NCBI RefSeq assembly: GCF_036365525.1
Contig: NC_090378.1
Location: forward strand, 120,575,593 to 120,639,592
DNA length: 64,000 nucleotides
From: Heterodontus francisci
Taxonomy: Eukaryota
Reading direction: 5' to 3'
Both the position numbers and the translations under genes were made by a program. Below are positions 1,973-57,652 of the stretch, in pieces. Each line of letters opens with the position of its first letter. Position 1 is the stretch's first letter. The notes under the pieces were generated by a model. That model did not search any database, was not told the origin of the DNA, and saw only the letters and a program-made list of their open reading frames with translations.

Positions 1973-2212
1973 AATCAAATCTTATGCTAATGTGCTATTG
2001 ATTGAGAGTTCAACCAGCCAATCATTAGAATCACTTGCTGAAATACAGCCAATCAACTGACAGGAATGTGGGACATTTCCAAAGTACTCCCGAGACATTT
2101 ACTGAATATTCTTAATGTTTATTACCTTTTACAGATTTACATTTACAGTAAAAAGACTTGAATAAACAGCTCAGTGAGAGGAAGCTGGAGAAATTCACAG
2201 GGAGAATGAAGG

Positions 2213-2218
2213 TTTATT
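2213..2218 (-). terminator. Probable polyadenylation signal (AATAAA) of the light-chain transcript
   Basis: TTTATT on +; first canonical AATAAA I can find downstream of the C stop (~500 nt), followed by a pyrimidine/GU-rich tract. Confidence 0.55.
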
Positions 2219-2715: not shown

Positions 2716-3044
2716 CTACACACATTCTGATCTGCTCACACTCTTACTGAGGGGAGAGGACAGGGTCTCGTGGGTGAGGGCACAGGAGAAGCGGGCGTTG
2801 GACTCCCAGTCAGAGCCAGAGAGGGTCAGCAGGCTGCTGACACTGTAGGTGCTGTCCGAAGCTCGCAGGTAATTGCTGGTCTGAACTCCGGCCGAAATGG
2901 CTGCACCGTCCTTCTTCCACTCCACCCCCACTTCATCGGGATAGAAGTGATCGGCAAGGCACACCAGGGTGGCAGTGCCCTTGGCCTTGACCTCCTCCGG
3001 CGAGGGGGGCATCAGGGTCAGTGTGGGTTGAGACTTCTCTCGGC
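2716..3044 (-). CDS. IGKC: Ig light-chain constant exon, kappa/type III (NS4-like)
   Basis: Acceptor ttctctttcag at 3045, phase 1. Translation (S)REKSQPTLTLMPPSPEEVKAKGTATLVCLADHFYPDEVGVEWKKDG...STYSVSSLLTLSGSDWESNARFSCALTHETLSSPLSKSVSRSECV*: both C1-set Cys, FYP, the conserved Trp and a penultimate Cys for the H-L disulfide. Confidence 0.96.
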
Positions 3045-3076
3045 CTGAAAGAGAAGAGAAAAACTGTTAATCACTG

Positions 3077-3315: not shown

Positions 3316-3506
3316 ATGTCACATCAGATAACAGACAGCAGAGTTAATGAACTGCAGCTGGTGTTGAATCGTTAGAAATGAGCACCATCACTTCTTAATT
3401 TGCCTCGCTTGCTAGGTTTAGTCTAAAATACAAAGACAGTGGATGGTTTGATGTTCAACTGGTTAAATTGTGTTCGACTGCTCTTGGAAGTATGATATGG
3501 TAGTTT

Positions 3507-10725: not shown

Positions 10726-10760
10726 TCAGTCTGAGCTTGGTTCCTTTACCGAACGTAAAC
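10726..10760 (-). CDS. IGKJ: Ig light-chain J segment, FTFGKGTKLRL(S)
   Basis: g ttt acg ttc ggt aaa gga acc aag ctc aga ctg a|GTAAGT: F-G-X-G-T motif and a consensus phase-1 donor matching the C acceptor (A+GC = Ser). Confidence 0.96.
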
Positions 10761-10799
10761 CACACTGACAGCTTCCAGTGCAGGGGCTGTACAATATCC
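10761..10799 (+). other. 23-RSS of the J segment
   Basis: CACACTG (10761-10767) + 23-bp spacer + ACAATATCC (10791-10799); consensus is CACAGTG / ACAAAAACC. Confidence 0.92.
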
Positions 10800-11665
10800 T
10801 CTGCTCTCTGTTTCACTCACTCACTCTCACCCTCTCTCTGTCTTTCACTGTCACTGTGTCTCTCTCTCTGTCACTCTTTGCCTGTGTGTATGTGTGTCTC
10901 TGTCTCTCACACTCTCTCTATATATATCTATTTGTCTCTGTCTCTATGTGTGCTTCTGTCTGTCTCTGTCTGTGTGTGTCGTTCACAGTGTGTCACACTC
11001 TGTCTCTGCTACTTTGGGTTTCTCTCACATTCTGTCTCTCTCTCATTGTTTTCTCTCACTCTGTCTCTTTCACTCTCTCATTATGTCCCTCTCTCTCACT
11101 CCCTGTTACTCTGTCTCTGTCACACGCTCTCTCTCTCTCACACTCTCTCTCAATCTGTCTCTCTCTTTCTCTCACTCACTCTGTCTCTCTTTCTCACTCT
11201 CTCTCACTCCCTCACTCTGTCTCTCTTTTTCTCCCTCTCACTGTCTCTCTCTTTCTTTCTCTCTCACTCTCTCTCTCTTTCTCACTCTCACTCTCTCATT
11301 CTGCCTCACTCTGTCTCTCTNNNNNNNNNNNNNNNNNNNNNNNNNNNNNNNNNNNNNNNNNNNNNNNNNNNNNNNNNNNNNNNNNNNNNNNNNNNNNNNN
11401 NNNNNNNNNNNNNNNNNNNNNNNNNNNNNNNNNNNNNNNNNNNNNNNNNNNNNNNNNNNNNNNNNNNNNNNNNNNNNNNNNNNNNNNNNTCTCACTCTCT
11501 CTCATTCAGTCTCACTCTGTCTCTCTTTTTCTCCCTCTCACTATCTCTCTCTTTCTCTCTCTCTCACTCTCTCACTTTGTCTCTCTTTCTCACTCTGTCT
11601 CTCTTTTTCTCCCTCTCACTCTCTCTCTCTTTCTCTCTCTCTCACTTTCTCTCTCTCTGTCTCTA
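10800..11665. repeat. CT/CA-rich degenerate microsatellite containing an assembly gap
   Basis: (CT)n/ctca low-complexity sequence on both sides of the N run. Confidence 0.9.
11321..11489. other. Assembly gap (169 N)
   Basis: Run of N. Confidence 1.
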
Positions 11666-12444
11666 ACAGACTGGGATGAATTCTCCCGGTGCCATGGAGA
11701 CGGGGTTCTCATTTGGAGGTTGGGCAGGACTGGGAAAAATACGACGAGCCGTGTCAACATGGCTCCCTGACACATTCCCGCCTCCGGGTTACTTTCCCAT
11801 GGGTGTACTGGGAACCGGTCATCTGCTGCCTCCATGGAGATGGGCAGACAATTAGAGCAATGAAGTTCACATTTAGGGGCCATTTTTGAGCCGGTGCTGG
11901 TATTTTACCAACGTCGGAGCGGCCTCCCCACCCCCGAGTGCGGAGGCCACCAGCTCAATGGAGGAGGCCTCCCGGCAGCAGGCCAGGGGACCATCGGAGA
12001 CGGAGACTCTATGTCCCAATGACAGAGCTACAGGGATGAAAAGCTGCAGTCCCGCCTGTTAATAATCCTGTGGAGGAGTTTCCTAACCCTAACCCTCTTC
12101 AACCTGATGGCCCAACTGGCTTCAGCCCTTTTTATTTTACTATTCCTCTGCAGGCAGCCAAGGGCGTCTCCATGTTGAGGGGCCCTCACTCTCGCCTGCC
12201 TGTTTCAGCAGGGCCCACCTCTCCCGGTGGAGCTGCCAGCCTGACATCACTGTGGGCCCTCTGATTGGGCCTGCAGGCTCGGGAGCCTGACTGCCATCAT
12301 TAATAGGACAGTGAGTGTGGAGGTGACCAATTAAGAGGCTGCCTCCCAGAAAGTTGCTCCGGCGAGTGCTGATGACATGGGCAGGCTCGGGACCCTCATA
12401 TAGGCCAGAAGTCAGAGTCCCAATGTCCACTGGGCCAACCAGCC

Positions 12445-12705
12445 ATCTCTCTCTCTCACGCTGTCCCTCTTGTGCTCTTTCCCTCTGTCTATCTCACTAT
12501 CTCCCTCTCTCTCTTTCTCTCATTCTCTTTCTCTCACTCTTTCTCTCTCTCTATCTGTCTCTCTCTAGCACTTTCTCTCTCTCTCCTACTGTCTCTCTTT
12601 ATCTCTCTCTCTCTCTCTCACTGTCTCTCTTTCTGTCATTCTCTCTCTCCCACTGTCTCTGTTTCTCTCTCTCTCCTGCTGTCTCAGCTTCACTCTCTCT
12701 CTCTG
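12445..12705. repeat. (CT)n-type low-complexity tract
   Basis: Direct inspection. Confidence 0.9.
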
Positions 12706-13816
12706 TTTGAATTCCATGCTGCCATGCTTGGGAAAGTTGGGAATTCTACTTGTCGATGATAAATCTTCCAGCTGCTCTTCCCACCACATCAGATGGAAAA
12801 ACCTGGAGCCACTCAATTCCTGGAAAATGAAAATCTCCCAGCTAACCGAGCTCACCTGCCTGTGCCCTGGAGAAAAGGGGAGGAGTGTTTCTGTAAATGT
12901 GATGTTTCTGTTGCTGACTCTGGTCTTCCTCATGGACCATTTGAAAACAGTGAGTTTCAGAGTCGGTGGATCATGTCTACATGGAGTGGGAGAGGTTGTG
13001 GCCCCTGTTCCATTATTTGAAGGGGCTGCTCCTCATCCTCTGGTTCTAATTCAGGCCCACACTCCTGATCTTTGGCCACCCAGTGCAGAGGGGACTGGGC
13101 AGGTTGGAGGCCCCTCCTCGTGGGTCTGCTCCTGGGCCTGGCCAAGGTGTCCATCCAGAGGCCCGAGTTGGATGGGACCCATGGGGGTGGTGGCACTGGC
13201 TGCCAGTCTCTCTACCATGGCATTGTCCCCACCCGGGTGGCCCTGGAGAAGGAGCAGGGGGTGTCTGCTGGGTCACTTGAGGCCTTCAGGCTGCAGTGGG
13301 CACCACAGGGACAGGAGTGTGTAGTGGATCGTGGAAATAACATCAGGCTTTAATTTGTTCAGTTTGCTTTCTATTTATGATTTCAGTTTTATTCATTTCG
13401 ACACTTTTCTAAATTGGATTTTGATTGGTGAAAATTGTGTCATCCAGATTGTCCAATCAGATGATAAGAAACCTGTTTCCATAGTAACTGACCTGGGGTG
13501 TCTGACCTGGGATGGGGGGTCAATAATAATGATCAATAATTAGTCTGTGCTCATGAAGCGACTCCACGAGAACCCAGAGAGAATCGAATGAAGCAAAATG
13601 TCAAATCTCCAGAGCTGTGAGATTCTCACTGATGAAGACAGCAGCTCCTCGTCCTCTCTAAACTCCTCCATCCTTTCTCAATTCCTCACACCGTTCAGGG
13701 GAATGTTTCTGTCAACACTCTCATCGACACATGTGGCAGCAATGCACAAAACAGCAAATATTTCCCAGATAGATAAGACAGGAGATTGAAGCAACTGTTT
13801 TAATAGAACGTCTGTT

Positions 13817-16800
13817 TATTATATAATAAATATAACTGTGGGATGTGTCGGTACAGGAGGTGGGACTGTGTGTCCATTATTAAATATTATATATAACTGT
13901 GGGATGTGTCAGTACAGGAGGTGGGACTGTGTGTCCATTATTATATATTATATATAACTGTGGGATGTGTCAGTGCAGGAGGTGTGACTGTGTGTCCATT
14001 ATTATATATTATATATAACTGTGGGATGTGTCAGTACAGGAGGTGGGACTGTGTGTCCATTATTATATATTATATATAACGGTGGATGTGTCAGTACAGG
14101 AGGTGGGACTGTGTGTCCATTATTATATATTATATATAACTGTGGACGTGTCAGTAGTGAAATTGGGACTGTGTGTCCATTATTATATATTATATATAAC
14201 GGTGGATGTGTCAGTAGAGAAATTGGGACTGTGCGTCCCTTATTATATATTATCTATAACTGTGGAACGTGTTAGTCGAGGAGGTGGGACTGTGTGTCCA
14301 TTATTATATATTATCTATAACTGTGGGATGTGTCAGTCGAGGAGGTGGGACTGTGCGTCCCTTATTATATATTATCTATAACTGTGGAACGTGTTAGTCG
14401 AGGAGGTGGGACTGTGTGTCCATTATTATATATTATATATAACTGTGGGATGTGTCAGTGCAGGAGGTGTGACTGTGTGTCCATTATTATATATTATATA
14501 TAACAGTGGGTTGTGTCAGTACAGGAGGTGGGACTGTGTGTCCATTATTATATATTATATCTAACTGTGGGATGTGTCAGTACAGGAGGTGGGACTGTGT
14601 GTCCATTATTATATATTATATATAACTGTGGGATGTGTCAGTACAGGAGGTGGGACTGTGTGTCCATTATTATATATTATATATAACTGTGGGATGTGTC
14701 AGTGCAGGAGGTGGGACTGTGTGTCCATTATTATATATTATATATAACTGTGGGATGTGTCAGTGCGGGAGGTGGGACTGTGCGTCCCATATTATATATT
14801 ATATATAACAGTGGAACGTGTCAGTCGAGGAGGTGGGACTGTGCGTCCCTTATTATATATTATCTATAACTGTGGAACGTGTTAGTCGAGGAGGTGGGAC
14901 TGTGTGTCCATTATTATATATTATATATAACTGTGGGATGTGTCAGTGCAGAAGGTGGGACTGTGTGTCCATTATTATATATTATATATAACTGTGGGAT
15001 GTGTCAGTGCAGGAGGTCGGACTGTGTGTCCATTATTATACATTATCTATAACTGTGGGATGTGTCAGTGCAGGAGGTGGGACTGTGTGTCCATTATTAT
15101 ATATTATATATAACTGTGGGATGTGTCAGTGCGGGAGGTGGGACTGTGCGTCCCATATTATATATTATATATAACAGTGGAACGTGTCAGTCGAGGAGGT
15201 GGGACTGTGCGTCCCTTATTATATATTATCTATAACTGTGGAACGTGTTAGTCGAGGAGGTGGGACTGTGTGTCCATTATTATATATTATATATAACTGT
15301 GGAACGTGTCAGTCGAGGAGGTGGGACTGTGCGTCCCTTATTATATATTATATATAACTGTGGAACGTGTTAGTCGAGGAGGTGGGACTGTGCGTCCCTT
15401 ATTATATATTATATATAACTGTGGAACGTGTCAGTCGAGGAGGTGGGACTGTGCGTCCCTTATTATATATTATATATAACTGTGGAACGTGTCAGTCGAG
15501 GAGGTGGGACTGTGCATCCATTATTATATATTATATATAACTGTGGGATGTGTCAGTGCGGGAGGTGGGCTGTGAGTCCATTATTATATATTATATATAA
15601 ATGTGGAACATGTCAGTCGGGTAGGTGGGACTGTGCGTCCATTATTATATATTATATATAACTGTGGAACGTGTCAGTCGAGGAGGTGGGACTGTGTGTT
15701 CATTATTATATATTATATATAACTGTGGAATGTGTCAGTGCGGGAGGTGGGCTGTGAGTCCATTATTATATATTATATATAAATGTGGAACATGTCAGTC
15801 GGGTAGGTGGGACTGTGCGTCCATTATTATATATTATATATAACTGTGGGATGTGTCAGTGCGGGAGGTGGGACTGTGTGTCCATTATTATATATTATAT
15901 ATAACTGTGGGATGTGTCAGTGCGGGAGGTGGGACTGTGTGTCCATTATTATATATTATCTATAACTGTGGGATGTGTCAGTGCGGGAGGTGGGCTGTGA
16001 GTCCATTATTATATATTATATATAAATGTGGAACATGTCAGTCGGGTAGGTGGGACTGTGCGTCCATTATTATATATTATATATAACTGTGGGATGTCAG
16101 TGCGGGAGGTGGGACTGTGTGTCCATTATTATATATTATATATAACTGTGGGATGTGTCAGTGCGGGAGGTGGGACTGTGTGTCCATTATTATATATTAT
16201 ATATAACTGTGGGATGTGTCAGTGCGGGAGGTGGGACTGTGTGTCCATTATTATATATTATATATAACTGTGGGATGTTTCAGTGCGGGAGGAGGGACTG
16301 TGTTTCCATTATTATATATTATATATAACTGTGGGATGTGTCAGTGCGGGAGGTGGGACAGTGTATCCATTATTATATACTATATATAACTGTGGGATGT
16401 TTCAGTGCGGGAGGTGGGACTGTGTTTCCATTATTATATATTATATATAACTGTGGGATGTGTCAGTGCGGGAGGCGGGACTGTGTTTCCATTATTATAT
16501 ATTATATATAACTGTGGGATGTGTCAGTGCAGGAGGTGGGACTGTGTGTCGATTATTATATATTATATATAACTGTGGGATGTGTCAGTGCAGGAGGTGG
16601 GACTGTGTGTCGATTATTATATATTATATATAACTGTGGGATGTGTCAGTGCGGGAGGTGGGACTGTGTGTCCATTATTATATATTATATATAACTGTGG
16701 GATGTGTCAGTGCAGGTGGTGGGACTGTGTGTCCATTATTATATATTATATATAACTGTGGGATGTGTCAGTGCAGGTGGTGGGACTGTGTGTCCATTAT

Positions 16801-19800
16801 TATATATTATATATAACTGTGGGATGTGTCAGTACAGGAGGTGGGACCGTGTGTCCATTATTATATATTATATATAACAGTGGGATGTTTCAGTGCAGGA
16901 GGTGGGACTGTGTGTCCATTATTATATATTATATCTAACTGTGGGATGTGTCAGTACAGGAGGTGGGACTGTGTGTCCATTATTATATATTATATATAAC
17001 TGTGGGATGTGTCAGTACAGGAGGTGGGACTGTGTGTCCATTATTATATATTATATATAACTGTGGGATGTGTCAGTACAGGAGGTGGGACTGTGTGTCC
17101 ATTATTATATATTATATCTAACTGTGGGATGTGTCAGTACAGGAGGTGGGACTGTGTGTCCATTATTATATATTATATATAACTGTGGGATGTGTCAGTA
17201 CAGGAGGTGGGACTGTGTGTCCATTATTATATATTATATATAACTGTGGGATGTGTCAGTGCAGGAGGTGGGACTGTGTGTCCATTATTATATATTATAT
17301 ATAACTGTGGGATGTGTCAGTGCGGGAGGTGGGACTGTGCGTCCCATATTATATATTATATATAACAGTGGAACGTGTCAGTCGAGGAGGTGGGACTGTG
17401 CGTCCCTTATTATATATTATCTATAACTGTGGAACGTGTTAGTCGAGGAGGTGGGACTGTGTGTCCATTATTATATATTATATATAACTGTGGGATGTGT
17501 CAGTGCAGAAGGTGGGACTGTGTGTCCATTATTATATATTATATATAACTGTGGGATGTGTCAGTGCAGGAGGTCGGACTGTGTGTCCATTATTATACAT
17601 TATCTATAACTGTGGGATGTGTCAGTGCAGGAGGTGGGACTGTGTGTCCATTATTATATATTATATATAACTGTGGGATGTGTCAGTGCGGGAGGTGGGA
17701 CTGTGCGTCCCATATTATATATTATATATAACAGTGGAACGTGTCAGTCGAGGAGGTGGGACTGTGCGTCCCTTATTATATATTATCTATAACTGTGGAA
17801 CGTGTTAGTCGAGGAGGTGGGACTGTGTGTCCATTATTATATATTATATATAACTGTGGAACGTGTCAGTCGAGGAGGTGGGACTGTGCGTCCCTTATTA
17901 TATATTATATATAACTGTGGAACGTGTTAGTCGAGGAGGTGGGACTGTGCGTCCCTTATTATATATTATATATAACTGTGGAACGTGTCAGTCGAGGAGG
18001 TGGGACTGTGCGTCCCTTATTATATATTATATATAACTGTGGAACGTGTCAGTCGAGGAGGTGGGACTGTGCATCCATTATGATATATTATATATAACTG
18101 TGGGATGTGTCAGTGCGGGAGGTGGGCTGTGAGTCCATTATTATATATTATATATAAATGTGGAACATGTCAGTCGGGTAGGTGGGACTGTGCGTCCATT
18201 ATTATATATTATATATAACTGTGGAACGTGTCAGTCGAGGAGGTGGGACTGTGTGTTCATTATTATATATTATATATAACTGTGGAATGTGTCAGTGCGG
18301 GAGGTGGGCTGTGAGTCCATTATTATATATTATATATAAATGTGGAACATGTCAGTCGGGTAGGTGGGACTGTGCGTCCATTATTATATATTATATATAA
18401 CTGTGGGATGTGTCAGTGCGGGAGGTGGGACTGTGTGTCCATTATTATATATTATCTATAACTGTGGGATGTCAGTGCGGGAGGTGGGACTGTGTATCCA
18501 TTATTATATATTATATATAACTGTGGGATGTGTCAGTGCGGGAGGTGGGACTGTGTGTCCATTATTATATATTATCTATAACTGTGGGATGTGTCAGTGC
18601 GGGAGGTGGGCTGTGAGTCCATTATTATATATTATATATAAATGTGGAACATGTCAGTCGGGTAGGTGGGACTGTGCGTCCATTATTATATATTATATAT
18701 AACTGTGGGATGTCAGTGCGGGAGGTGGGACTGTGTGTCCATTATTATATATTATATATAACTGTGGGATGTGTCAGTGCGGGAGGTGGGACTGTGTGTC
18801 CATTATTATATATTATATATAACTGTGGGATGTGTCAGTGCGGGAGGTGGGACTGTGTGTCCATTATTATATATTATATATAACTGTGGGATGTTTCAGT
18901 GCGGGAGGTGGGACTGTGTTTCCATTATTATATATTATATATAACTGTGGGATGTGTCAGTGCGGGAGGTGGGACAGTGTATCCATTATTATATACTATA
19001 TATAACTGTGGGATGTTTCAGTGTGGGAGGTGGGACTGTGTTTCCATTATTATATATTATATATAACTGTGGGATGTGTCAGTGCGGGAGGCGGGACTGT
19101 GTTTCCATTATTATATATTATATATAACTGTGGGATGTGTCAGTGCAGGAGGTGGGACTGTGTGTCGATTATTATATATTATATATAACTGTGGGATGTG
19201 TCAGTGCAGGAGGTGGGACTGTGTGTCGATTATTATATATTATATATAACTGTGGGATGTGTCAGTACAGGAGGTGGGACCGTGTGTCCATTATTATATA
19301 TTATATATAACAGTGGGATGTTTCAGTGCGGGAGGTGGGACTGTGTTTCCATTATTATATATTATATATAACTGTGGGATGTGTCAGTGCAGGTGGTGGG
19401 ACTGTGTGTCCATTATTATATATTATATATAACTGTGGGATGTGTCAGTACAGGAGGTGGGACTGTGTGTCCATTATTATATACTATATATAACTGTGGG
19501 ATGTTTCAGTGCGGGAGGTGGGACTGTGTTTCCATTATTATATATTATATATAACTGTGGGATTTGTCATAATGGGAGGTGGGACTGTGTTTCCAATATT
19601 ATATCTTATATATAACTGTGGAACGTGTCAGTCGAGCAGGTGGGACTGTGCGTCCATTATTATATATGAGATATAACTGTGGGATGTGTCAGTGCGGGAG
19701 GTGGGACTGTGTGTCCATTATTATATATTATATATAACTGTGGAACGTGTCAGTCGAGGAGGTGGTACTGTGCGTCCATTATTATATATTATATATAACT

Positions 19801-22800
19801 GTGGGATGTGTCAGTGCGGGAGGTGGGACTGTGTGTCCATTACTATATATTATATATAACTGTGGAACGTGTAAATCAAGGAGGTGGGACTGTGTCTCCA
19901 TTATTATATATTATATATCACTGTGGAACGTGTCAGTCGAGGAGGTGGGACTGTGCGTCCATTATTATATATTATATGTAACTGTGGAAAGTGTCAGTCG
20001 AGGAGGTGGGACTGTGTGTCCATTATTATATATTATATATAACTGTGGGATGTGTCAGTGCGGGAGGTGGGACTGTGTGTCCATTATTATATATTATATA
20101 TAACTGTGGGATGTGTCAGTACAGGAGGTGGGACTGTGTGTCCATTATTATATATTATATATAACTGTGGAACGTGTCAGTCGAGGAGGTGGGACTGTGC
20201 GTCCAATATTATATATTATATATAACTGTGGGATGTGTCAGTGCGGGAAGTGGGACTGTGTGTCCATTATTATATATTATATACAACTGTCGGATGTGTC
20301 AGTGCGGGAGGTGGGACTGTGTGTCCATTATTATATATTCTAGATAACTGTCGGATGTGTCAGTACAGGAGGTGGGACTGTGTGTCCAATATTATGTCTT
20401 ATATATAACTGTGGGATGTGTCAGTGCGGGAGGTGGGACTGTGTGTCCATGAACATATATTATATATAACTGTGGGATGTGTCAGTACAGGAGGTGGGGC
20501 TGTGTGTCCAATATTATATATTATATATAACTGTCGGATGTGTCAGTACAGGAGGTGGGACTGTGTGTCCAATATTATATATTATATATAACTGTCGGAT
20601 GTGTCAGTACAGGAGGTGGGACTGTGTGTCCAATATTATGTCTTATATATAACTGTGGGACGTGTCAGTCCAGGAGGTGGGACTGTGTGTCCATTATTAT
20701 ATATTAGATATAACAGTGGGATGTGTCAGTACAGGAGGTGGGACTGTGCGTCCATTATTATATATTATATATAACTGTGGGATGTGTCAGTTCAGGAGGT
20801 GGGACTGTGTGTCCATTATTATATATTATATATAACTGTGGGATGTGTCAGTGCAGGAGGTGGGACTGTGTGTCCATTATTATATATTATATATAACAGT
20901 GGGATGTGTCAGTGCGGAAGGTGGGACTGTGCATCCATTATTATATATTATATATAACAGTGGAACGTGTCAGTCGAGGAGGTGGGACTGTGCGTCCCAT
21001 ATTATATATTATATATAACAGTGGAACGTGTCAGTCGAGGAGGTGGGACTGTGCGTCCCTTATTATATATTATATATAACTGTGGAACGTGTTAGTCGAG
21101 GAGGTGGGACTGTGCGTCCCTAATTATATATTATATATAACTGTGGAACGTGTCAGTCGAGGAGGTGGGACTGTGCGTCCCTTATTATATATTATATATA
21201 ACTGTGGAACGTGTCAGTCGAGGAGGTGGGACTGTGCAACCATTATTATATATATATATAACTGTGGGATGTGTCAGTGCGGGAGGTGGGACTGTGTGTC
21301 CATTATTATATATTATATATAACTGTGGGATGTGTCAGTGCGGGAGGTGGGACTGTGCGTCCATTATTATATATTATCTATAACTGTGGGATGTGTCAGT
21401 GCGGGAGGAGGGCTGTGAGTCCATTATTATATATTATATATAATTGTGGAACATGTCAGTCGGGTAGGTGGGACTGTGCGTCCATTATTATATATTATAT
21501 ATAACTGTGGGATGTCAGTGCGGGAGGTGGGACTGTGTGTCCATTATTATATACTATATATAACTGTGAGATGTGTCAGTGCGGGAGGTGGGACTGTGTG
21601 TCCATTATTATATACTATATATAACTGTGAGATGTGTCAGTGCGGGAGGTGGGACTGTGTGTCCATTATTATATACTATATATAACTGTGGGATGTGTCA
21701 GTGCGGGAGGTGGGACTGTGTGTCCATTATTATATACTATATATAACTGTGGGATGTGTCAGTGCGGGAGGTGGGACTGTGTGTCCATTATTATATATTA
21801 TATATAACTGTCGGATGTGTCAGTACAGGTGGTGGGACTGTGTGTCCATTATTATATATTATATATAACTGTGGGATGTGTCAGTGCGGGAGGTGGGACT
21901 GTGTGTCCATTATTATATACTATATATAACTGTGGGATGTGTCAGTGCGGGAGGTGGGACTGTGTGTCCATTATTATTATTATATATAACTGTGGGATGT
22001 GTCAGTGCAGGAGGTGGGACTGTGTGTCGATTATTATATATTTTCTATAACTGTGGGATGTGTCAGTGCGGGAGGTGGGACTGTGTGTCCATTATTATAT
22101 ATTATATATAACTGTGGGATGTGTCAGTGCAGGTGGTGGGACAGTGTGTCCATTATTATATATTATATATAACTGTGGGATGTTTCAGTGCGGGAGGTGG
22201 GACTGTGTTTCCATTATTATATATTATATATAACTGTGGGATGTGTCATAATGGGAGGTGGGACTGTGTTTCCAATATTATATATTATATATAACTGTGG
22301 AACGTGTCAGTCGAGGAGGTGGGACTGTGCGTCCATTATTATATATTATATATAACTGTGGGATGTGTCAGTGCGGGAGGTGGGACTGTGTGTCCATTAT
22401 TATATATTATATATAACTGTGGAACGTGTCAGTCGAGGAGGTGGTACTGTGCGTCCATTATTATATATTATATATAACTGTGGGATGTGTCAGTGCGGGA
22501 GGTGGGACTGTCTGTCCATTATTATATATTATATATAACTGTGGAACGTGTCAGTCGAGGAGGTGGCACGGTGCGTCCATTATTATATATTATATATAAC
22601 TGTGGGATGTGTCAGTGCAGGAGGTGGACTGTGTGTCCATTATTATATATTATATATAACTGTGGGATGTGTCAGTGCGGGAGGTGGGACTGTGTGTCCA
22701 TTACTATATATTATATATAACTGTGGAACGTGTAAATCAAGGAGGTGGGACTGTGTCTCCATTATTATATATTATATATAACTGTGGAACGTGTCAGTCG

Positions 22801-43800: not shown

Positions 43801-46800
43801 ATTATATATTATATATAACTGTGGAACGTGTCAGTCGAGGAGGTGGGACTGTGTGTCCATTATTATATATTATATTTAACTGTGGGATGTGTCAGTACAG
43901 GAGGTGGGACTGTGTGTCCATTATTATATATTATATATAACTGTGGAACGTGTCAGTCGAGGACTTGGGACTGTGTGTCCATTATTATATATTATATTTA
44001 ACTGTGGGATGTGTCAGTACAGGAGGTGGGACTGTGTGTCCATTATTATATATTATATATAACTGTGGGGTCTGTCAGTACAGGAGGTGGGACTGTGTGT
44101 CCATTATTATATATTATATATAACTGTGGAACGTGTCAGTCGAGGAGGTGGGACTGTGTGTCCATTATTATATATTATATTTAACTGTGGGATGTGTCAG
44201 TACAGGAGGTGGGACTGTGTGTCCATTATTATATATTATATATAACTGTGGGATGTGTCAGTACAGGAGGTGGGACTGTGTGTCCATTATTATAAATTAT
44301 ATATAACTGTGGGATGTGTCAGTGCAGGAGGTGGGACTGTGTGTCCATTATTATATATTATATATAACTGTGGGATGTGTCAGTACAGGATGTGGGACTG
44401 TGTGTCCATTATCATAAATTATATACAACTGTGGGATGTGTCAGTAAAGGAGGTGGGACTGTGTGTCCATTATTATATATTATATATAACTGTGGGATGT
44501 GTCAGTGCGGGAGGTGGGACTGTGTGTCCATTATTATATATTATCTATAACTGTGGGATGTGTCAGTGCGGGAGGTGGGACTGTGTATCCATTATTATAT
44601 ATTATATATAACTGTGGGATTTGTCAGGACTGGAGGTGGGACTGTGAGTCCATTATTATATATTATATATAAATGTGGAACATGTCAGTCGGGTAGGTGG
44701 GACTGTGCGTCCATTATTATATATTATATATAACTGTGGGATGTCAGTGCGGGAGGTGGGACTGTGTATCCATTATTATATATTATATATAACTGTGGGA
44801 TTTGTCAGGACTGGAGGTGGGACTGTGTGTCCATTATTATATATTATATATAACTGTGGGATGTGTCAGTGCGGGAGGTGGGACTGTGTGTCCATTATTA
44901 TATACTATATATAACTGTGAGATGTGTCAGTGCGGGAGGTGGGACTGTGTGTCCATTATTATATACTATATATAACTGTGGGATGTGTCAGTGCGGGAGG
45001 TGGGACTGTGTGTCCATTATTATATACTATATATAACTGTGAGATGTGTCAGTGCGGGAGGTGGGACTGTGTGTCTTTTATTATATACTATATATAACTG
45101 TGGGATGTGTCAGTGCGGGAGGTGGGACTGTGTGTCCATTATTATATATTATATATAACTGTGGGATGTGTCAGTGCAGGTGGTGGGACAGTGTGTCCAT
45201 TATTATATATTATATATAACTGTGGGATGTTTCAGTGCGGGAGGTGGGACTGTGTTTCCATTATTATATATTATATATAACTGTGGGATGTGTCATAATG
45301 GGAGGTGGGACTGTGTTTCCATTATTATATATTATATATAACTGTGGGATGTGTCAGTGCAGGTGGTGGGACAGTGTGTCCATTATTATATATTATATAT
45401 AACTGTGGGATGTTTCAGTGCGGGAGGTGGGACTGTGTTTCCATTATTATATATTATATATAACTGTGGGATGTGTCAGTGCGGGAGGTGGGACTGTGTG
45501 TCCATTATTATATATTATATATAACTGTGGAACGTGTCAGTCGAGGAGGTGGTACTGTGCGTCCATTATTATATATTATATATAACTGTGGGATGTGTCA
45601 GTGCGGTAGGTGGGACTGTCTGTCCATTATTATATATTATATATAACTGTGGAACGTGTCAGTCGAGGAGGTGGCACGGTGCGTCCATTATTATATATTA
45701 TATATAACTGTGGGATGTGTCAGTGCAGGAGGTGGGACTGTGTGTCCATTATTATATATTATATATAACTGTGGAACGTGTCAGTCGAGGAGGTGGGACT
45801 GTGCGTCCATTACTATATATTATATATAACTGTGGAACGTGTAAATCAAGGAGGTGGGACTGTGTCTCCATTATTATATATTATATATAACTGTGGAACG
45901 TGTCAGTCGAGGAGGTGGGACTGTGCGTCCCTGATTATATATTATATATAACTGTGGAAAGTGTCAGTCGAGGAGGTGGGACTGTGTGTCCATTATTATA
46001 TATTATATATAATTGTCGGATGTGTCAGTGCGGGAGGTGGGACTGTGTGTCCATTATTATATACTATATATAACTGTGGGATGTGTCAGTGCGGGAGGTG
46101 GGACTGTGTGTCCATTATTATATACTATATATAACTGTGGGATGTGTCAGTGCGGGAGGTGGGACTGTGTGTCCATTATTATATATTATATATAACTCTC
46201 GGATGTGTCAGTACAGGTGGTGGGACTGTGTGTCCATTATTATATATTATATATAACTGTGGGATGTGTCAGTGCGGGAGGTGGGACTGTGTGTCCATTA
46301 TTATATACTATATATAACTGTGGGATGTGTCAGTGCGGGAGGTGGGACTGTGTGTCCATTATTATTATTATATATAACTGTGGGATGTGTCAGTGCAGGA
46401 GGTGGGACTGTGTGTCGATTATTATATATTATATATAACTGTGGGATGTGTCAGTGCAGGTGGTGGGACAGTGTGTCCATTATTATATATTATATATAAC
46501 TGTGGGATGTTTCAGTGCGGGAGGTGGGACTGTGTTTCCATTATTATATATTATATATAACTGTGGAACATGTCAGTCGAGGAGGTGGGACTGTGCGTCC
46601 ATTATTATATATTATATATAACTGTGGGATGTGTCAGTGCGGGAGGTGGGACTGTGTGTCCATTATTATATATTATATATAACTGTGGGATGTGTCAGTG
46701 CGGGAGGTGGGACTGTGTGTCCATTATTATATATTATATCTAACTGTGGGATGTGTCAGTGCGGGAGGTGGGACTGTCTGTCCATTATTATATATTATAT

Positions 46801-49800
46801 ATAACTGTGGAACGTGTCAGTCGAGGAGGTGGCACGGTGCGTCCATTAATATATATTATATATAACTGTGGGATGTGTCAGTGCAGGAGGTGGGACTGTG
46901 TGTCCATTATTATATATTATATATAACTGTGGGATGTGTCAGTGCGGGAGGTGGGACTGTCTGTCCATTATTATATATTATATATAACTGTGGAACGTGT
47001 CAGTCGAGGAGGTGGCACGGTGCGTCCATTAATATATATTATATATAACTGTGGGATGTGTCAGTGCAGGAGGTGGGACTGTGTGTCCATTATTATATAT
47101 TATATATAACTGTGGAACGTGTCAGTCGAGGAGGTGGCACGGTGCGTCCATTAATATATATTATATATAACTGTGGAACGTGTCAATACAGGAGGTGGGA
47201 CTGTGCGTCCATTATTAGATATTATATATAACTGTGGGATGTGTCAGTGCGGGAGGTGGGACTGTCTGTCCATTATTATATATTATATATAACTGTGGAA
47301 CGTGTCAGTCGAGGAGGTGGCACGGTGCATCCATTAATATATATTATATATAACTGTGGGATGTGTCAGTGCAGGAGGTGGGACTGTGTGTCCATTATTA
47401 TATATTATGTATAACTGTGGAACGTGTCAGTCGAGGAGGTGGGACTGTGCGTCCATTATTAGATATTATATATAACTGTGGGATGTGTCAGTGCGGGAGG
47501 TGGGACTGTGTGTCCATTACTATATATTATATATAACTGTGGAAAGTGTAAATCAAGGAGGTGGGACTGTGTCTCCATTATTATATATTATATCGAACTG
47601 TGGAACGTGTCAGTCGAGGAGGTGGGACTGTGCGTCCATTATTATATATTATATATAACTGTGGAAAGTGTCAGTCGAGGAGGTGGGACTGTGTGTCCAT
47701 TCTTATATATTATATATAACTGTGGGATGTGTCAGTGCGGGAGGTGGGACTGTGTGTCCATTATTATATATTATATATAACTGTGGGATGTGTCAGTACA
47801 GGAGGTGGGACTGTGTGTCCATTATTATATATTATATATAACTGTGGAACGTGTCAGTCGAGGAGGTGGGACTGTGCGTCCATTATTATATATTATATAT
47901 AACTGTGGGATGTGTCAGTTCGGGAGGTGGGACTGTGTGTCCATTATTATATATCATATATAAATGTGGGATGTGTCAGTGCAGGAGGTGGGACTGTGTG
48001 TCCATTATTATATATTATATATAACTGTCGGATGTGTCAGTGCGGGAGGTGGGACTGTGTGTCCATTATTATATATTCTAGATAACTGTCGGATGTGTCA
48101 GTACAGGAGGTGGGACTGTGTGTCCAATATTATGTCTTATATATAACTGTGGGATGTGTCAGTGCGGGAGGTGGGACTGTGTGTCCATGAACATTTATTA
48201 TATATAACTGTGGGATGTGTCAGTACAGGACGTGGGACTGTGAGCCCATTATTATATATTCTAGATAACAGTGGGATCTGTCAGGACAGGAGGTGGGGCT
48301 GTGTGTCCAATATTATATATTATATATAACTGTCGGATGTGTCAGTACAGGAGGTGGGACTGTGTGTCCAATATTATGTCTTATATATAACTGTGGGACG
48401 TGTCAGTCCAGGAGGTGGGACTGTGTGTCCATTATTATATATTAGATATAACTGTGGGATGTGTCAGTACAGGAGGTGGGACTGTGTGTCCATTATTATA
48501 TATTATATATAAATGTGGGATGTGTCAGTGCAGGAGGTGGGACTGTGTGTCCATTATTATATATTATATATAACTGTGGGATGTGTCAGTGCGGGAGGTG
48601 GGACTGTGTGTCCATGAACATATATTATATATAACTGTGGGATGTGTCAGTACAGGACGTGGGACTGTGAGCCCATTATTATATATTCTAGATAACAGTG
48701 GGATGTGTCAGTACAGGGGGTGGGACTGTGTGTCCATTATTATATATTATATATAACTGTGGGATGTGTCAGTGCAGGAGGTGGGACTTTGTGTCCATTA
48801 TTATATATTATATATAACTGAGGGATGTGTCAGGACAGGAGGTGGGACTGTGTGTCGATTATTATATATTATATATAACTGTGGGATGTGTCAGTACAGG
48901 AGGTGGGACTGTGTGTCCATTATTATATATTATATATAAATGTGGGATGTGTCAGTGCAGGAGGTGGGACTGTGTGTCCATTATTATATATTATATATAA
49001 CTGTGGGATGTGTCAGAGCGGGAGGTGGGATTTTGTGTCCATTATTATATATAATATATAAATGTGGGATGTGTCAGTGCAGGAGGTGGGACTGTGTGTC
49101 CATTATTATCTATTATATATAACTGTGGGATGTGTCAGTGCGGGAGGTGGGACTGTGTGTCCATTATTATATATGATATATAACTGTGGGATGTGTCAGT
49201 GCGGGAGGTGGGACTGTGTGTCCATTATTATATATTATATATAACTGTGGGTTGTGTCAGTAGAGGAGGTGGGACTGTGAGTCCATTATTATATATAATA
49301 TATAATTGTGGGATGTGTCAGTGCAGGAGGTGGGACTGTGTGTCCAATATTATATATTATATATAACTGTGGGATGTGTCAGTGCGGGAGGTGGGACTGT
49401 GTGTCCATTATTATATATTATATATAACTGTGGAACGTGTCAGTGTGGGAGGTGGGACTATGCGTCCATTATTATATATTATATATAACTGTGGAAAGTG
49501 TCAGTCGAGGAGGTGGGACTGTGTGTCCATTATTATATATTATATATAACTGTGGGATGTGTCAGTGCGGGAGGTGGGACTGTGTGTCCATTATTATATA
49601 TTATATATAACTGTGGGATGTGTCAGTACAGGAGGTGGGACTGTGTGTCCAATATTATGTCTTATATATAACTGTGGGACGTGTCAGTCCAGGAGGTGGG
49701 ACTGTGTGTCCATTATTATATATTAGATATAACTGTGGGATGTGTCAGTACAGGAGGTGGGACTGTGTGTCCATTATTATATATTAAATATAACTGTGGG

Positions 49801-52800
49801 ATGTGTCAGTACAGGAGGTGGGACTGTGTGTCCATTATTATATATTATATATAAATGTGGGATGTGTCAGTGCAGGAGGTGGGACTGTGTGTCCATTATT
49901 ATATATTATATATAACTGTGGGATGTGTCAGTGCGGGAGGTGGGACTGTGTGTCCATGAACATATATTATATATAACTGTGGGATGTGTCAGTACAGGAC
50001 GTGGGACTGTGAGCCCATTATTATATATTCTAGATAACAGTGGGATGTGTCAGTACAGGGGGTGGGACTGTGTGTCCATTATTATTTATTATATATAACT
50101 GAGGGATGTGTCAGGACAGGAGGTGGGACTGTGTGTCCATTATTATATATTATATATAACTGTGGGATGGGTCAGTGCGGGAGGTGGGACTGTGTGTCGA
50201 TTATTATATATTATATATAACTGTGGGATGTGTCAGAGCGGGAGGTGGGATTTTGTGTCCATTATTATATATAATATATAAATGTGGGATGTGTCAGTGC
50301 AGGAGGTGGGACTGTGTGTCCATTATTATCTATTATATATAACTGTGGGTTGTGTCAGTAGAGGAGGTGGGACTGTGTGTCCATTATTATCTATTATATA
50401 TAACTGTGGGATGTGTCAGTGCGGGAGGTGGGACTGTGTATCCATTATTATATAATATATATAACTGTGGGTTGTGTCAGTAGAGGAGGTGGGACTGTGA
50501 GTCCATTATTATATATTATATATAATTGTGGGATGTGTCAGTGCAGGAGGTGGGACTGTGTGTCCAATATTATATATTATATATAACTGTGGGATGTGTC
50601 AGTGCGGGAGGTAGGACTGTGTGTCCAATATTATATATTATATATAACTGTGGGTTGTGTCAGTAGAGGAGGTGGGACTGTGAGTCCATTATTATATATA
50701 ATATATAATTGTGGGATGTGTCAGTGCGGGAGGTGGGACTGTGTGTCCATTATTATATATTATCTATAACTGTGGGTTGTGTCAGTAGAGGAGGTGGGAC
50801 TGTGAGTCCATTATTATATATAATATATAATTGTGGGATGTGTCAGTGCGGGAGGTGGGACTGTGTATCCAATATTATATATTATGTATAACTGTGGGAT
50901 GTGTCAGTGCAGGAGTTGGGACTGTGTGTCCAATATTATATATTATGTATAACTGTGGGTTGTGTCAGTAGAGGAGGTGGGACTGTGAGTCCATTATTAT
51001 ATATAATATATAATTGTGGGATGTGTCAGTGCAGGAGGTGGGACTGTGTGTCCAATATTATATATTATATATAACTGTGGGATGTGTCAGTGCGGGAGGT
51101 GGGACTGTGTGTCCATTATTATATATTATATATAACTGTGGAACGTGTCAGTGTGGGAGGTGGGACTATGCGTCCATTATTATATATTATATATAACTGT
51201 GGAAAGTGTCAGTCGAGGAGGTGGGACTGTGTGTCCATTATTATATATTATATATAACTGTGGGATGTGTCAGTGCGGGAGGTGGGACTGTGTGTCCATT
51301 ATTATATATTATATATAACTGTGGGATGTGTCAGTACAGGAGGTGGGACTGTGTGTCCATTATTATATATTATATATAACTGTCGAACGTGTCAGTCGAG
51401 GAGGTGGGACTGTGCGTCCAATATTATATATTATATATAACTGTGGGATGTGTCAGTGCGGGAGGTGGGACTGTGTGTCCATTATTATATATCATATATA
51501 AATGTGGGATGTGTCAGTACAGGAGGTGGGACTGTGTGTCCACTATTATATATTATATATAACTGTGGGATGTGTCAGTGCAGGAGGTGGGACTGTGTGT
51601 CCATTATTATATATTATATATAACTGTGGGATGTGTCAGTCCAGGAGGTGGGACTGTGTGTCCACTATTATATATTATATATAACTGTGGGATGTGTCAG
51701 TGCAGGAGGTGGGACTGTGTGTCCATTATTATATATTATATATAACTGTCGGATGTTTCAGTGAGGGAGGTGGGACTGTGTGTCCATTATTATATATTCT
51801 AGATAACTGTCGGATGTGTCAGTACAGGAGGTGGGACTGTGTGTCCATTATTATATATCATATATAAATGTGGGATGTGTCAGTACAGGAGGTGGGACTG
51901 TGTGTCCATTATTATATATTATATATAACTGTGGGATGTGTCAGTGCAGGAGGTGGGACTGTGTGTCCATTATTATATATTATATATAACTGTCGGATGT
52001 GTCAGTGCGGGAGGTGGGACTGTGTGTCCATTATTATATATTCTAGATAACTGTCGGATGTGTCAGTACAGGAGGTGGGACTGTGTGTCCAATATTATGT
52101 CTTATATATAACTGTGGGATGTGTCAGTGCGGGAGGTGGGACTGTGTGTCCATGAACATATATTATATATAACTGTGGGATGTGTCAGTACAGGACTTGG
52201 GCCTGTGAGCCCATTATTATATATTCTAGATAACAGTGGGATCTGTCAGGACAGGAGGTGGGGCTATGTGTCCAATATTATATATTATATATAACTGTCG
52301 GATGTGTCATAATGGGAGGTGGGACTGTGTTTCCAATATTATATATTATATATAACTGTGGAACGTGTCAGTCGAGGAGGTGGGACTGTGCGTCCATTAT
52401 TATATATTATATGTAACTGTGGGATGTGTCAGTGCGGGAGGTGGGACTGTCTGTCCATTATTATATATTATATATAACTGTGGAACGTGTCAGTCGAGGA
52501 GGTGGCACGGTGCGTCCATTATTATATATTATATATAACTGTGGGATGTGTCAGTGCAGGAGGTGGGACTGTGTGTCCATTATTATATATTATATATAAC
52601 TGTGGAACGTGTCAGTCGAGGAGGTGGGACTGTGCGTCCATTATTAGATATTATATATAACTGTGGGATGTGTCAGTGCGGGAGGTGGGACTGTGTGTCC
52701 ATTACTATATATTATATATAACTGTGGAACGTGTAAATCAAGGAGGTGGGACTGTGTCTCCATTATTATATATTATATATAACTGTGGAACGTGTCAGTC

Positions 52801-55800
52801 GAGGAGGTGGGACTGTGCGTCCCTTATTATATATTATATATAACTGTGGAAAGTGTCAGTCGAGGAGGTGGGACTGTGTGTCCATTATTATATATTATAT
52901 ATAACTGTGGGATGTGTCAGTGCGGGAGGTGGGACTGTGTGTCCATTATTATATGTTATATATAACTGTGGGATGTGTCAGTACAGGAGGTGGGACTGTG
53001 TGTCCATTATTATATATTATATATAACTGTGGAACGTGTCAGTCGAGGAGGTGGGACTGTGCGTCCATTATTATATATTATATATAACTGTGGGATGTGT
53101 CAGTGCGGGAGGTGGGACTGTGTGTCCATTATTATATATCATATATAAATGTGGGATGTGTCAGTGCAGGAGGTGGGACTGTGTGTCCATTATTATATAT
53201 TATATATAACTGTCGGATGTGTCAGTGCGGGAGGTGGGACTGTGTGTCCATTATTATATATTCTAGATAACTGTCGGATGTGTCAGTACAGGAGGTGGGA
53301 CTGTGTGTCCAATATTATGTCTTATATATAACTGTGGGATGTGTCAGTACAGGACGTGGGACTGTGAGCCCATTATTATATATTCTAGATAACAGTGGGA
53401 TCTGTCAGGACAGGAGGTGGGGCTGTGTGTCCATTATTATATATTATATATAACTGTGGGATGCGTCAGTACAGGAGGTGGGACTGTGTGTCCATTATTA
53501 TATATTATATATAACTGTGGGATGCGTCAGTACAGGAGGTGGGACTGTGTGTCCATTATTATATATTATATATAACTTTGGGATGTGTCAGTGCGGGAGG
53601 TGGGACTGTGTGTCCATTATTATATATTATATATAACTGTGGGATGTGTCAGTACAGGAGGTGGGACTGTGTGTTCATTATGATATATTATATATAACTG
53701 TGGGACGTGTCAGTGCAGGGCTTGGGACTGTGTATCCATTATTATATATTATATATAACTGTGGGATGTGTCAGTACAGGAGGTGGGACAGTGTGTCCAT
53801 TATTATATATTATATATAACTGTGGGACGTGTCAGTGCAGGGGTTGGGACTGTGTATCCATTATTATGTATTATATATAACTGTGGGATGTGTCAGTACA
53901 GGAGGTGGGACTGTGTGTCCATTATTATATATTATATATAACTGTGGGACGTGTCAGTGCAGGGGTTGGGACTGTGTATCCATTATTATATATTATATAT
54001 AACTGTGGGATGTGTCAGTACAGGAGGTGGGACTGTGTATCCATTATTATATATTAGATATAACTGTGGGACGTGTCAGTGCAGGGGTTGGGACTGTGTA
54101 TCCATTATTATATATTATATATAACTGTGGGATGTGTCAGTACAGGAGGTGGGACTGTGTGTTCATTATTATATATTATATATAACTGTGGGCCGTGTCA
54201 GTACAGGAGCTGGGACTGTGTGTCCATTATTATATATTATATATAACTGTGGGACGTGTCAGTGCAGGGGTTGGGACTGTGTATCCATTATTATATATTA
54301 TATATAACTGTGGGATGTGTCAGTACAGGAGGTGGGACTGTGTGTCCATTATTATATATTATATATAACTGTGGGACGTGTCAGTGCAGGGGTTGGGACT
54401 GTGTATCCATTATTATATATTATATATAACTGTGGGATGTGTCAGTACAGGAGGTGGGACTGTGTGTCCATTATTATATATTATATATAACTGTGGGACG
54501 TGTCAGTGCAGGGGTTGGGACTGTGTATCCATTATTATATATTATATATAACTGTGGGATGTGTCAGTGCGGGAGGTGGGACTGTGTGTCCATTATTATA
54601 TATTATATATAACTGTGGGATGTGTCAGTACAGGAGGTGGGACTGTGTGTTCATTATGATATATTATATATAACTGTGGGACGTGTCAGTGCAGGGCTTG
54701 GGACTGTGTATCCATTATTATATATTATATATAACTGTGGGATGTGTCAGTACAGGAGGTGGGACTGTGTGTCCATTATTATATATTATATATAACTGTG
54801 GGATGTGTCAGTGCAGGGGTTGGGACTGTGTGTTCATTATTATATATTATATATAACTGTGGGACGTGTCAGTGCAGGGGTTGGGACTGTGTATCCATTA
54901 TTATATATTATATATAACTGTGGGACGTGTCAGTGCAGGGGTTGGGACTGTGTGTTCATTATTATATATTATATATAACTGTGGGCCGTGTCAGTACAGG
55001 AGGTGGGAATGTGTGTCCATTATTATATATTATATATCACTGTGGGATGCGTCAGTCTCGGAGGTGGGACTGTGCGTCCATTATTATATATTATATATAA
55101 CTGTGGGCCGTGTCAGTACAGGAGGTGGGAATGTGTGTCCATTATTATATATTATATATAACTGTGGGCCGTGTCAGTACAGGAGGTGGGACTGTCTGTC
55201 CATTATTATATATTATATATAACTGTGGGATGCGTCAGTATAGGAGGTGGGACTGTGCGTCCATTATTATATATTATATATAACTGTGGGATGTGTCAGT
55301 ACAGGAGCTGGGACTGTGTGTCCATTATTATATATTATATATAACTGTGGGATGCGTCAGTATAGGAGGTGGGACTGTGCGTCCATTATTATATATTATA
55401 TATTACTGTGGGCCGTGTCAGTACAGGAGCTGGGACTGTGTGTCCATTATTATATATTATATATAACTGTGGGATGCGTCAGTACAGGAGGTGGGACTGT
55501 GTGTTCATTATTATATATTATATATAACTGTGGGCCGTGTCAGTACAGGAGGTGGGACTGTGTGTCCATTATTATATATTATATATAACTGTGGGCCGTG
55601 TCAGTACAGGAGCTGGGACTGTGTGTCCATTATTATATATTATATATAACTGTGGGATGCGTCAGTACAGGAGGTGGGACTGTGTGTTCATTATTATATA
55701 TTATATATAACTGTGGGCCGTGTCAGTACAGGAGCTGGGACTGTGTGTCCATTATTATATATTATATATAACTGTGGGCCGTGTCAGTACAGGAGCTGGG

Positions 55801-56968
55801 ACTGTGTGTCCATTATTATATATTATATATAACTGTGGGATGCGTCAGTACAGGAGGTGGGACTGTGTGTTCATTATTATATATTATATATAACTGTGGG
55901 CCGTGTCAGTACAGGAGGTGGGACTGTGTATCCATTATTATATATTATATATAACTGTGGGCCGTGTCAGTGCTGGAGGTGGGACTGTGTGTCCATTATT
56001 ATATATTATATATAACTGTGGGCCGTGTCAGTACAGGAGGTGGGACTGTGTGTCCATTATTATATATTGTATATAACTGTGGGCCGTGTCAGTACAGGAG
56101 GTGGGACTGTGTGTCCATTATTATATATTATATATAACTGTGGGCCGTGTCAGTACAGGAGGTGGGACTGTGTGTCCATTATTATATATTGTATATAACT
56201 GTGGGCCGTGTCAGTACAGGAGGTGGGACTGTGTATCCATTATTATATATTATATATAACTGTGGGATGTGTCAGTACAGGAGGTGGGACTGTGTGTCCA
56301 TTATTATATATTATATATAACTGTGGGCCGTGTCAGTACAGGAGGTGGGACTGTGTGTCCATTATTATATATTATATATAACTGTGGGCCGTGTCAGTAC
56401 AGGAGGTGGGACTGTGTGTCCATTATTATATATTATATATAACTGTGGGCCGTGTCAGTACAGGAGGTGGGACTGTGTGTCCATTATTATATATTATATA
56501 TAACTGTGGGCCATGTCAGTACAGGAGGTGGGACTGTGTGTCCATTATTATATATTATATATAACTGTGGGATGCGTCAGTACAGGAGGTGGGACTGTGT
56601 GTCCATTATTATATATTATATATAACTGTGGGATGTGTCAGTACAGGAGGTGGGACTGTGTGTCCATTATTATATATTATATATAACTGTGGGCCGTGTC
56701 AGTGCTGGAGGTGGGACTGTGTGTCTATTATTATATATTATATATAACTGTGGGATGTGTCAGTACAGGAGGTGGGACTGTGAGTCCATTATTATATATT
56801 ATATATAACTGTGGGACGTGTCAGTACAGGAGGTGGGACTGTGTGTCCATTATTATATATTATATATAACTGTGGGATGTGTCAGTGCAGGAGGTGGGAC
56901 TGTGTGTCCATTATTATATATTATATATAACTGTGGGATGTGTCAGGACAGGAGGTGGGACTGTGTGT
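13817..56968. repeat. ~43-kb tandem array of a 61-bp unit (~700 copies) with higher-order repeats, filling the V-J interval
   Basis: Consensus aactgtgggatgtgtcagt(a/g)c(a/g)ggaggtgggactgtgtgtccattattatatattatatat; uninterrupted by other elements; multi-kb duplicated blocks visible as repeated ORFs. Confidence 0.98.
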
Positions 56969-56973
56969 ATTGA

Positions 56974-57001
56974 GGTTTTTGTAAGGCTCTGTCTCACTGT
57001 G
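56974..57001 (-). other. 12-RSS of the V segment (perfect consensus)
   Basis: Minus strand CACAGTG-agacagagcctt(12 bp)-ACAAAAACC immediately after the V coding end; V12/J23 is the kappa configuration. Confidence 0.97.
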
Positions 57002-57303
57002 GATAGACCAGCTTTTAGCTTGCTGACAGTAATAATCTGCGACATCCTCATTCTGTACATTACTGATTGTCAGAGTGAATTTGGTGTTCTGTTGACTGCC
57101 GGTGAATCGTTCGGATATTCCTGTGTATCGAGTTGTTGCATAATAGATCAGGAGAGTGGGTTTCTGACCGTCTCGCTGCTGATACCAAGCTACTTCATTG
57201 CTCACGGACTGGCTGGCCGTACAGGTGATCGTTGCGGTCTGTCCCAGTGTCACTGACAGTGCCGGTGGAGACTGGGTCATGATGATGGTGTCTCCACTGA
57301 TAC
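57002..57303 (-). CDS. IGKV: Ig light-chain V exon (kappa/type III), germline and unrearranged
   Basis: Acceptor tattacccctcag; (G)[100 protein letters not shown]; both Cys, WYQQ, LLIY and DYYC present; open frame. Confidence 0.96.
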
Positions 57304-57489: not shown

Positions 57490-57538
57490 CTGCGACGCAG
57501 AATGCCAGAGGCCAGATCAGCTGGATGGGTGAAATCAT
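57490..57538 (-). CDS. IGKV: Leader (signal peptide) exon of the V gene, MISPIQLIWPLAFCVA(G)
   Basis: ATG in good Kozak context (ggcaccATG), 16 hydrophobic codons, phase-1 donor G|GTACAA, 186-nt intron to the V exon. Confidence 0.92.
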
Positions 57539-57596: not shown

Positions 57597-57652
57597 GCTT
57601 TATAAAGCTGCAGCCTGTGAGAGTCTGACTGCCTGTTTCTCAGTATGTAAAT
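57597..57652 (-). promoter_or_regulatory. V promoter: TATA box and variant octamer
   Basis: TATAAA within palindrome gctttataaagc (57597-57608), ~60 bp upstream of ATG; ATTTACAT (57645-57652) is one mismatch from the light-chain octamer ATTTGCAT, in the expected orientation. Confidence 0.7.

Follow-up and report, generated by a model that had tools for sequence, protein, structure and literature searches.

A complete kappa light-chain cluster with an expanded V-J spacer

The minus strand of the window, by which we mean the whole 64,000-nucleotide stretch of horn shark (Heterodontus francisci) DNA analysed here, holds one complete immunoglobulin (Ig) kappa light-chain cluster of the NS4/type III kind, composed of single V, J, and C segments in a common orientation with V and J unjoined (Table 1). 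The reading frames are open, splice sites and promoter motifs are present, among them ATTTACAT, which we take to be an octamer-like promoter element, and the leader intron is 186 bp long. The kappa assignment rests on shark protein hits of 66–95% identity, most of them named kappa light chain, and other light-chain types of the same genome reach only 39–49% identity to the window V and C. The encoded protein is 79% identical to nurse shark kappa (P0041), and its C-kappa part is identical in 14 of the 28 kappa clusters described below. A single V, J, and C per cluster, a leader intron of 186 bp, and split V and J segments with recombination signals (RSS) are all features shared with published shark kappa, namely nurse shark NS4 and horn shark type III (PMC2193156, PMC5192425).

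Table 1. Parts of the horn shark kappa cluster, with positions counted from the first letter of the window
Feature	Position	Strand	Basis
Presumed octamer-like element ATTTACAT	57645..57652	-	sequence
TATA-like element TATAAA	57599..57604	-	sequence
Leader exon (MISPIQLIWPLAFCVA), GT donor	57490..57538	-	sequence; 186-nt splice joint in RNA-like contigs
V-kappa exon, open frame, end CQQAKSWSI	57002..57303	-	Pfam V-set E 8e-19; horn shark and other shark kappa hits
V 12-RSS, CACAGTG-12-ACAAAAACC, consensus	56974..57001	-	sequence
61-bp satellite, 708 copies, 43.15 kb	13816..56968	-	first unit 5 bp past V nonamer
Non-satellite part of spacer, ~3.0 kb, GA-rich tracts	10800..13815	.	2.3 kb with 99.96% identity to paralogues 11 and 21
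J 23-RSS, CACACTG-23-ACAATATCC, facing V RSS	10761..10799	+	sequence
J-kappa segment (FTFGKGTKLRL/S; FTFGKGTKLRLS), GT donor at 10725	10726..10760	-	matches J of cDNA-type protein P0009
C-kappa exon including the stop codon, 108-aa open frame	2716..3044	-	Pfam C1-set E 2e-23
Two AATAAA polyadenylation-type signals	2118..2218	-	sequence

The first-pass annotation of this DNA had described an intact kappa minicluster with V and J about 46 kb apart, a geometry that would make joining deletional, and a distance far above what is normal for shark miniloci, and all three points hold. The intervening DNA measures 46,241 bp, of which 43.15 kb is satellite, against roughly 0.4–0.5 kb published for such loci, and a search of this spacer found no other V, J, or C. 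Because the V 12-RSS and the J 23-RSS, both unjoined, face each other, V-J joining would be deletional and would release the 46,241-bp spacer as a circle. Other minisatellites flank the cluster, with 45-bp units downstream of C (1–1444) and 43-, 32-, 23-, and 36-bp units upstream of V (58827–59242), so the region appears generally prone to tandem expansion.

The satellite fills the spacer of all 28 kappa clusters

In the genome, 28 V, 28 J, and 28 C segments pair one-to-one as strict V-J-C triplets at 115.7–124.8 Mb of contig C8 (150 of 1,350 V candidates and 150 of 567 C candidates were scored, together with all 29 J candidates, one of which, a partial hit off the locus, was left out). The strict triplets, found in 28 of 28 cases, rule out a translocon locus in which many V segments share J and C, and both RSS are present in every cluster, which rules out a germline-joined light-chain gene. 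We read both ends of all 28 V-J spacers, and nine of the arrays wholly or nearly so (clusters 2, 3, 4, 11, 15, 21, 26, 27, and 28; cluster 15 is that of the window). The 61-bp satellite is present in all 28 spacers, beginning without exception 5 nt past the V nonamer and ending 2.8–5.4 kb before J. V-J distances range from 7,537 to 216,649 bp with a median of 48,950 bp, and the individual arrays comprise about 55–3,460 units, adding up to about 1.49 Mb and 24,400 units.

The annotation had described the expansion for the window cluster, and had held that paralogues all sharing such spacing would make it ordinary for the species. When V-J distances are compared across the paralogous kappa clusters, the same kind of spacing is found throughout; the window spacer ranks 13th of 28, with 15 clusters exceeding it. 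An oddity of a single cluster is thus ruled out, since all 28 carry the array. The related proposal of a programmed loss of the satellite from B cells was overstated, as one joining event would remove a single array, about 3% of the haploid 1.49 Mb.

The V frame is open in all 28 clusters. The leader donor of cluster 4 is AT rather than GT, and the J heptamer of cluster 13 reads CATACTG; these two clusters may be impaired by the changes. Clusters 1–15 lie on the minus strand and 16–28 on the plus strand, and the array of cluster 28, the longest, ends abruptly in unrelated sequence, 5.4 kb from J. The kappa V tree is poorly resolved, with 12 of 21 inner branches open, and we read from it neither an order of events nor any shuffling of V and J.

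Soundness of the assembled arrays

The array lengths, or some of the clusters, could be artefacts of assembly, through expanded repeats or false duplication of a second haplotype, and several near-identical copies speak for this. Clusters 6 and 12 are nearly identical and have the same 27,375-bp spacer, the pairs 9/23, 10/22, and 11/21 mirror each other at 98.7–100%, and the raw-data support stems from one sample; the DNA and RNA-like runs used here come from a single sample that may itself be the source of the assembly. We nevertheless regard such inflation as very improbable, because unit order is conserved between copies that were placed independently: 777 of 783 units are kept between clusters 11 and 21, and 636 of 699 between the window array and cluster 11, the offset jumping by 22–43 units at a time. 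The arrays are heterogeneous, with 199 distinct 61-bp units among 670 in the window and a mean distance of 5.9% from the consensus, and the mirrored pairs show differences of 61, 122, and 407 bp. Cluster 28 has an array of 211 kb, of which we read all but about 0.9 kb and which in these parts is continuous, in one orientation, and free of N, and more than 20 long spacers remain when one member of each near-identical pair is dropped. Head-to-tail unit junctions also occur in contigs of a DNA run. The single N run of the window sits in the non-satellite part of the spacer, where an unsized gap is ruled out by paralogue 11, whose interval is of equal length with 1 mismatch outside the N.

Clusters 9–11 recur in inverted orientation as clusters 23–21, a duplication about 430 kb long with 98.7–100% identity (119.10–119.53 and 122.82–123.25 Mb of C8), and clusters 6/12, 18/24, and 19/25 are direct near-duplicates. 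Such near-identical copies may reflect recent duplication or partial false duplication.

Distribution and likely origin of the satellite

An exact 31-mer of the satellite has 4,054 matches in the genome, 2,155 forward and 1,899 reverse, a ratio of 1.135 that agrees with the 1.142 obtained from the summed lengths of plus- and minus-strand kappa arrays (795 and 696 kb). The match rate in sampled arrays predicts about 4,700 matches from the kappa spacers alone, against 4,054 found, so that without any excess over the kappa prediction nothing is left to place elsewhere. The matches listed individually (100 of the 4,054 pattern hits, and 119 of 119 matches in a DNA search) all fall in kappa spacers. 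The satellite thus appears to be private to kappa spacers, with small arrays elsewhere possible. These strand counts and listed matches, with no large outside arrays, speak against a dispersed or centromeric satellite family.

Where the repeat came from is suggested by gene models of other sharks, in which the predicted protein continues past the RSS and there resembles the translated first satellite unit. The closest is Chiloscyllium (bamboo shark) P0049, HSDTEPYKNFKPHSTTSYTDTSHSYI, with 11 of 15 residues identical over the first unit, followed by Scyliorhinus (catshark) P0031 (11 of 20) and Cetorhinus (basking shark) P0033 (9 of 20), and the zebra shark gene model matches less well than that of the bamboo shark. 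Eight translated gene models were compared and share 5–11 identical residues over the unit part. Such matches point to the satellite monomer being the ancestral RSS flank, and the array likely grew where it now lies, out of the DNA that directly follows the V recombination signal. In a DNA run of another organism (X9), five 31-letter contigs identical to the unit occur at depths of 11–1,000, a hint that a related shark may share a satellite array.

Array length changes block by block. The window array contains internal duplications of 34–43 units and shows no regular higher-order period (at the best lag, 9% of units are identical), and clusters 26 and 20, whose flanks are 99.0% identical, have spacers of 7.5 and 81 kb.

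Other shark Ig clusters are compact

Nurse shark NS4 kappa spacers measure 502–524 bp (PMC2193156), unlike those of horn shark kappa, which at 7.5–217 kb are filled by one satellite. Within the horn shark genome the expansion likewise is confined to kappa among the clusters read. Two light-chain clusters on contig C46, which we take to be sigma-2/type I, have V-J distances of 378 and 381 bp without satellite, and V and J are about 1.33 kb apart in three heavy-chain clusters on contig C34, again without satellite. Two light-chain clusters on C23 were dropped as spacer controls since they carry germline-joined VJ; these joined genes belong to other light-chain isotypes. The two C46 clusters read are split and have a J-C intron of about 1.4 kb, and between 15.0 and 16.9 Mb this contig carries at least 45 light-chain C hits (among the 150 of 567 scored), most at a spacing of about 16 kb. 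Several D-type RSS are found in the C34 clusters, where the V RSS has a spacer of 22 bp.

In shark IgH miniloci, which resemble the kappa family in being independent clusters, 60–1,300 kb apart, with joining presumed to occur within the cluster, segments lie about 400 bp apart in the nurse shark, and the model that no long-range recombination or locus contraction is needed rests on this distance (Malecek et al. 2008, PMC2435157). Unlike the situation in that model, the V-J distances of horn shark kappa clusters overlap the scale on which clusters are separated from one another. The next reachable J lies 2.3-fold further than the cluster's own J in clusters 10 and 22, and 5.1-fold further in the window cluster. 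In mammalian translocon loci, RAG brings together segments at distances of 90 kb and above (PMC2435157). In horn shark kappa, unlike in those loci, such a distance spans one V and one J. The translocon distance in mammals is filled by other V segments and serves combinatorial choice.

Joined kappa sequences in RNA-like runs

Four sequencing runs from the one sample, none of them recorded as RNA, were taken to be RNA, a guess, and show the 186-nt leader splice joint; kappa contigs whose V end continues into J sequence are very numerous in these runs. Loose ends at the last base of the window V occur in 19 contigs of X1 and 14 of X6, and X8 has one contig with an in-frame joint to a J of the GTTTACG type. 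A V end of the window type is found only in clusters 11, 14, 15, and 21, whose spacers are 46–103 kb long and whose J segments are all of the GTTTACG type. The V-J-joined kappa sequences of the RNA-like runs therefore likely include a V-end type private to clusters with spacers of 46–103 kb, which suggests that joining spans at least 46 kb, a bridged distance that we infer and that would shrink if a second haplotype carries shorter arrays. The window V is linked in no contig to the J and C of its own cluster.

The cDNA-type horn shark 'secretory form' protein P0009, which comes from another source, scores best against clusters 11 and 21 (51 kb), with 19 and 25 one point behind, and could derive from clusters 19 or 25 (23–28 kb). 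Private alleles of clusters 9/23 (66 kb), 10/22 (124 kb), 13, 5, 26, 2, and 28 appear among 39 difference rows. A ranking of clusters by RNA was dropped, as contig depth cannot rank genes and alleles that belong to no cluster reach similar shares (at most 16%). The private FR3/CDR3 parts of cluster 28 (217 kb) have almost no cover at 98% likeness, and no loose end from V28 to a J is among those listed for two RNA-like runs; holes occur in the DNA run as well, and such coverage holes carry no evidence. The RNA-like runs also hold satellite-matching contigs and one contig running from V through RSS into satellite, which could represent germline read-through transcription or DNA carry-over.

What the array may do

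We think it probable that the window holds an ordinary member of the kappa family in which a satellite expansion, driven by drift, is tolerated in DNA that V-J joining excises anyway, with RAG bridging the distance. The RSS flank would have been duplicated in tandem in an ancestral kappa cluster, ahead of the multiplication of the family, and array length would since have drifted in both directions through unequal crossing-over and slippage. Each V 12-RSS would be paired by RAG with the J 23-RSS of the same cluster, across tens of kilobases to more than 100 kb, and the array, deleted as a circle, would never enter the mature gene. Because it is located in DNA removed by V-J joining, the array would be without cost to the mature gene, and in assembling a kappa gene B cells likely discard tens of kilobases of repeat each time. 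This account starts from features observed directly, that is, an array in 28 of 28 clusters with a fixed start, its range of lengths, the block-wise differences between copies, and the compact spacers of the other Ig clusters read. Against it, no kappa cluster has less than 3.4 kb of satellite, which is awkward for pure drift with deletion, and a review gives sigma-2 rather than kappa as the main light chain of the horn shark (PMC5192425), as would fit a cost of long spacers.

The latter point raises the alternative that the array acts as a brake or rheostat, in which distance and repeat-type chromatin lower or delay kappa rearrangement, rank the clusters by length, and shift the balance toward the compact sigma-2 clusters. 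According to a review, kappa is the most expressed light chain in the nurse shark, as sigma-2 is in the horn shark (PMC5192425). Kappa makes up about 90% of nurse shark light-chain cDNA (PMC2435157), with spacers as short as those given above. The expansion is absent from the five other split Ig clusters read, and the satellite carries about 1 CpG per unit. Gene number, however, explains the isotype shift equally well, the horn shark genome having at least 45 C hits on C46 and 28 kappa clusters, and the nurse shark has four NS5 genes (PMC2435157). The annotation's suggestion that the expansion could lower or delay use of the window cluster gains no support, as kappa V-J joints are abundant in the RNA-like contigs, and tenfold spacer differences between near-identical clusters look untuned, so a brake seems to us unlikely. 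A broader proposal, which we put forward only tentatively, is that the private, RSS-anchored satellite sets the V-J distance of horn shark kappa, that B cells join across 50–200 kb inside 'miniclusters', that sharks thus possess a machinery for long-range synapsis which they were thought not to need, and that array length is a heritable dial on the use of individual clusters and of the kappa isotype.

If the satellite is instead a tolerated passenger, as we favour, it still appears confined to DNA destined for somatic excision, and horn shark kappa still departs from the standard picture of shark Ig rearrangement, in which segments lie a few hundred bases apart and a long-range step is absent. 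With 28 near-identical kappa clusters, nearly the same RSS, and a 29-fold range of V-J distance, a single genome offers a natural experiment that bears on the effects of distance and repeats on RAG joining, on cluster fidelity, and on isotype choice in the oldest antibody lineage. The kind of gene is known; the family-wide, RSS-anchored satellite spacer is new to the extent of the literature searched. That search, of main texts only, found no report of a satellite-filled kappa V-J spacer, and Rast et al. 1994 and Iacoangeli et al. 2017, which lay outside its scope, may bear on novelty.

A last possibility is that the array presents RAG with a field of cryptic signals, such that V inverts into the satellite or RAG at the J captures CAC motifs, killing clusters or driving expansion in the germline. 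At the unit junctions a look-alike, CACAGTT-23-ACACAGTCC, is formed in the orientation of the V RSS, 396 times in the window array and some 1,890 times in that of cluster 28, and a match of this quality arises in 0.64% of 5,000 dinucleotide shuffles of the unit, at thresholds of our choosing. CAC occurs 2,932 times on the V-RSS strand of the window array against 11 on the other, and the true J RSS of this cluster is off-consensus. The A-tract is important for an RSS nonamer, but the nonamer look-alike ACACAGTCC has none. Its orientation would allow only inversion with V; there are 0 plus-strand 23-spacer sites and 2 loose 12-spacer sites, leaving almost no 12/23-compatible deletional decoys, and no strand-changing joint is seen among the joints shown, few contigs covering that part. 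RAG is active in shark germ cells (PMC2193156), and in the mouse it cuts cryptic 23-RSS in gamma-satellite (Cowell et al. 2003, PMC2193808). The two repeats are alike in that the unit includes a look-alike of a 23-spacer RSS, repeated thousands of times, here as a putative signal; unlike gamma-satellite, which sits outside antigen receptor loci (PMC2193808), the kappa satellite lies between V and J and appears to derive from the RSS flank. We consider a cryptic-signal field highly unlikely. In cluster 28, variants of the motif with a perfect CACAGTG heptamer (19 counted) cluster toward J.
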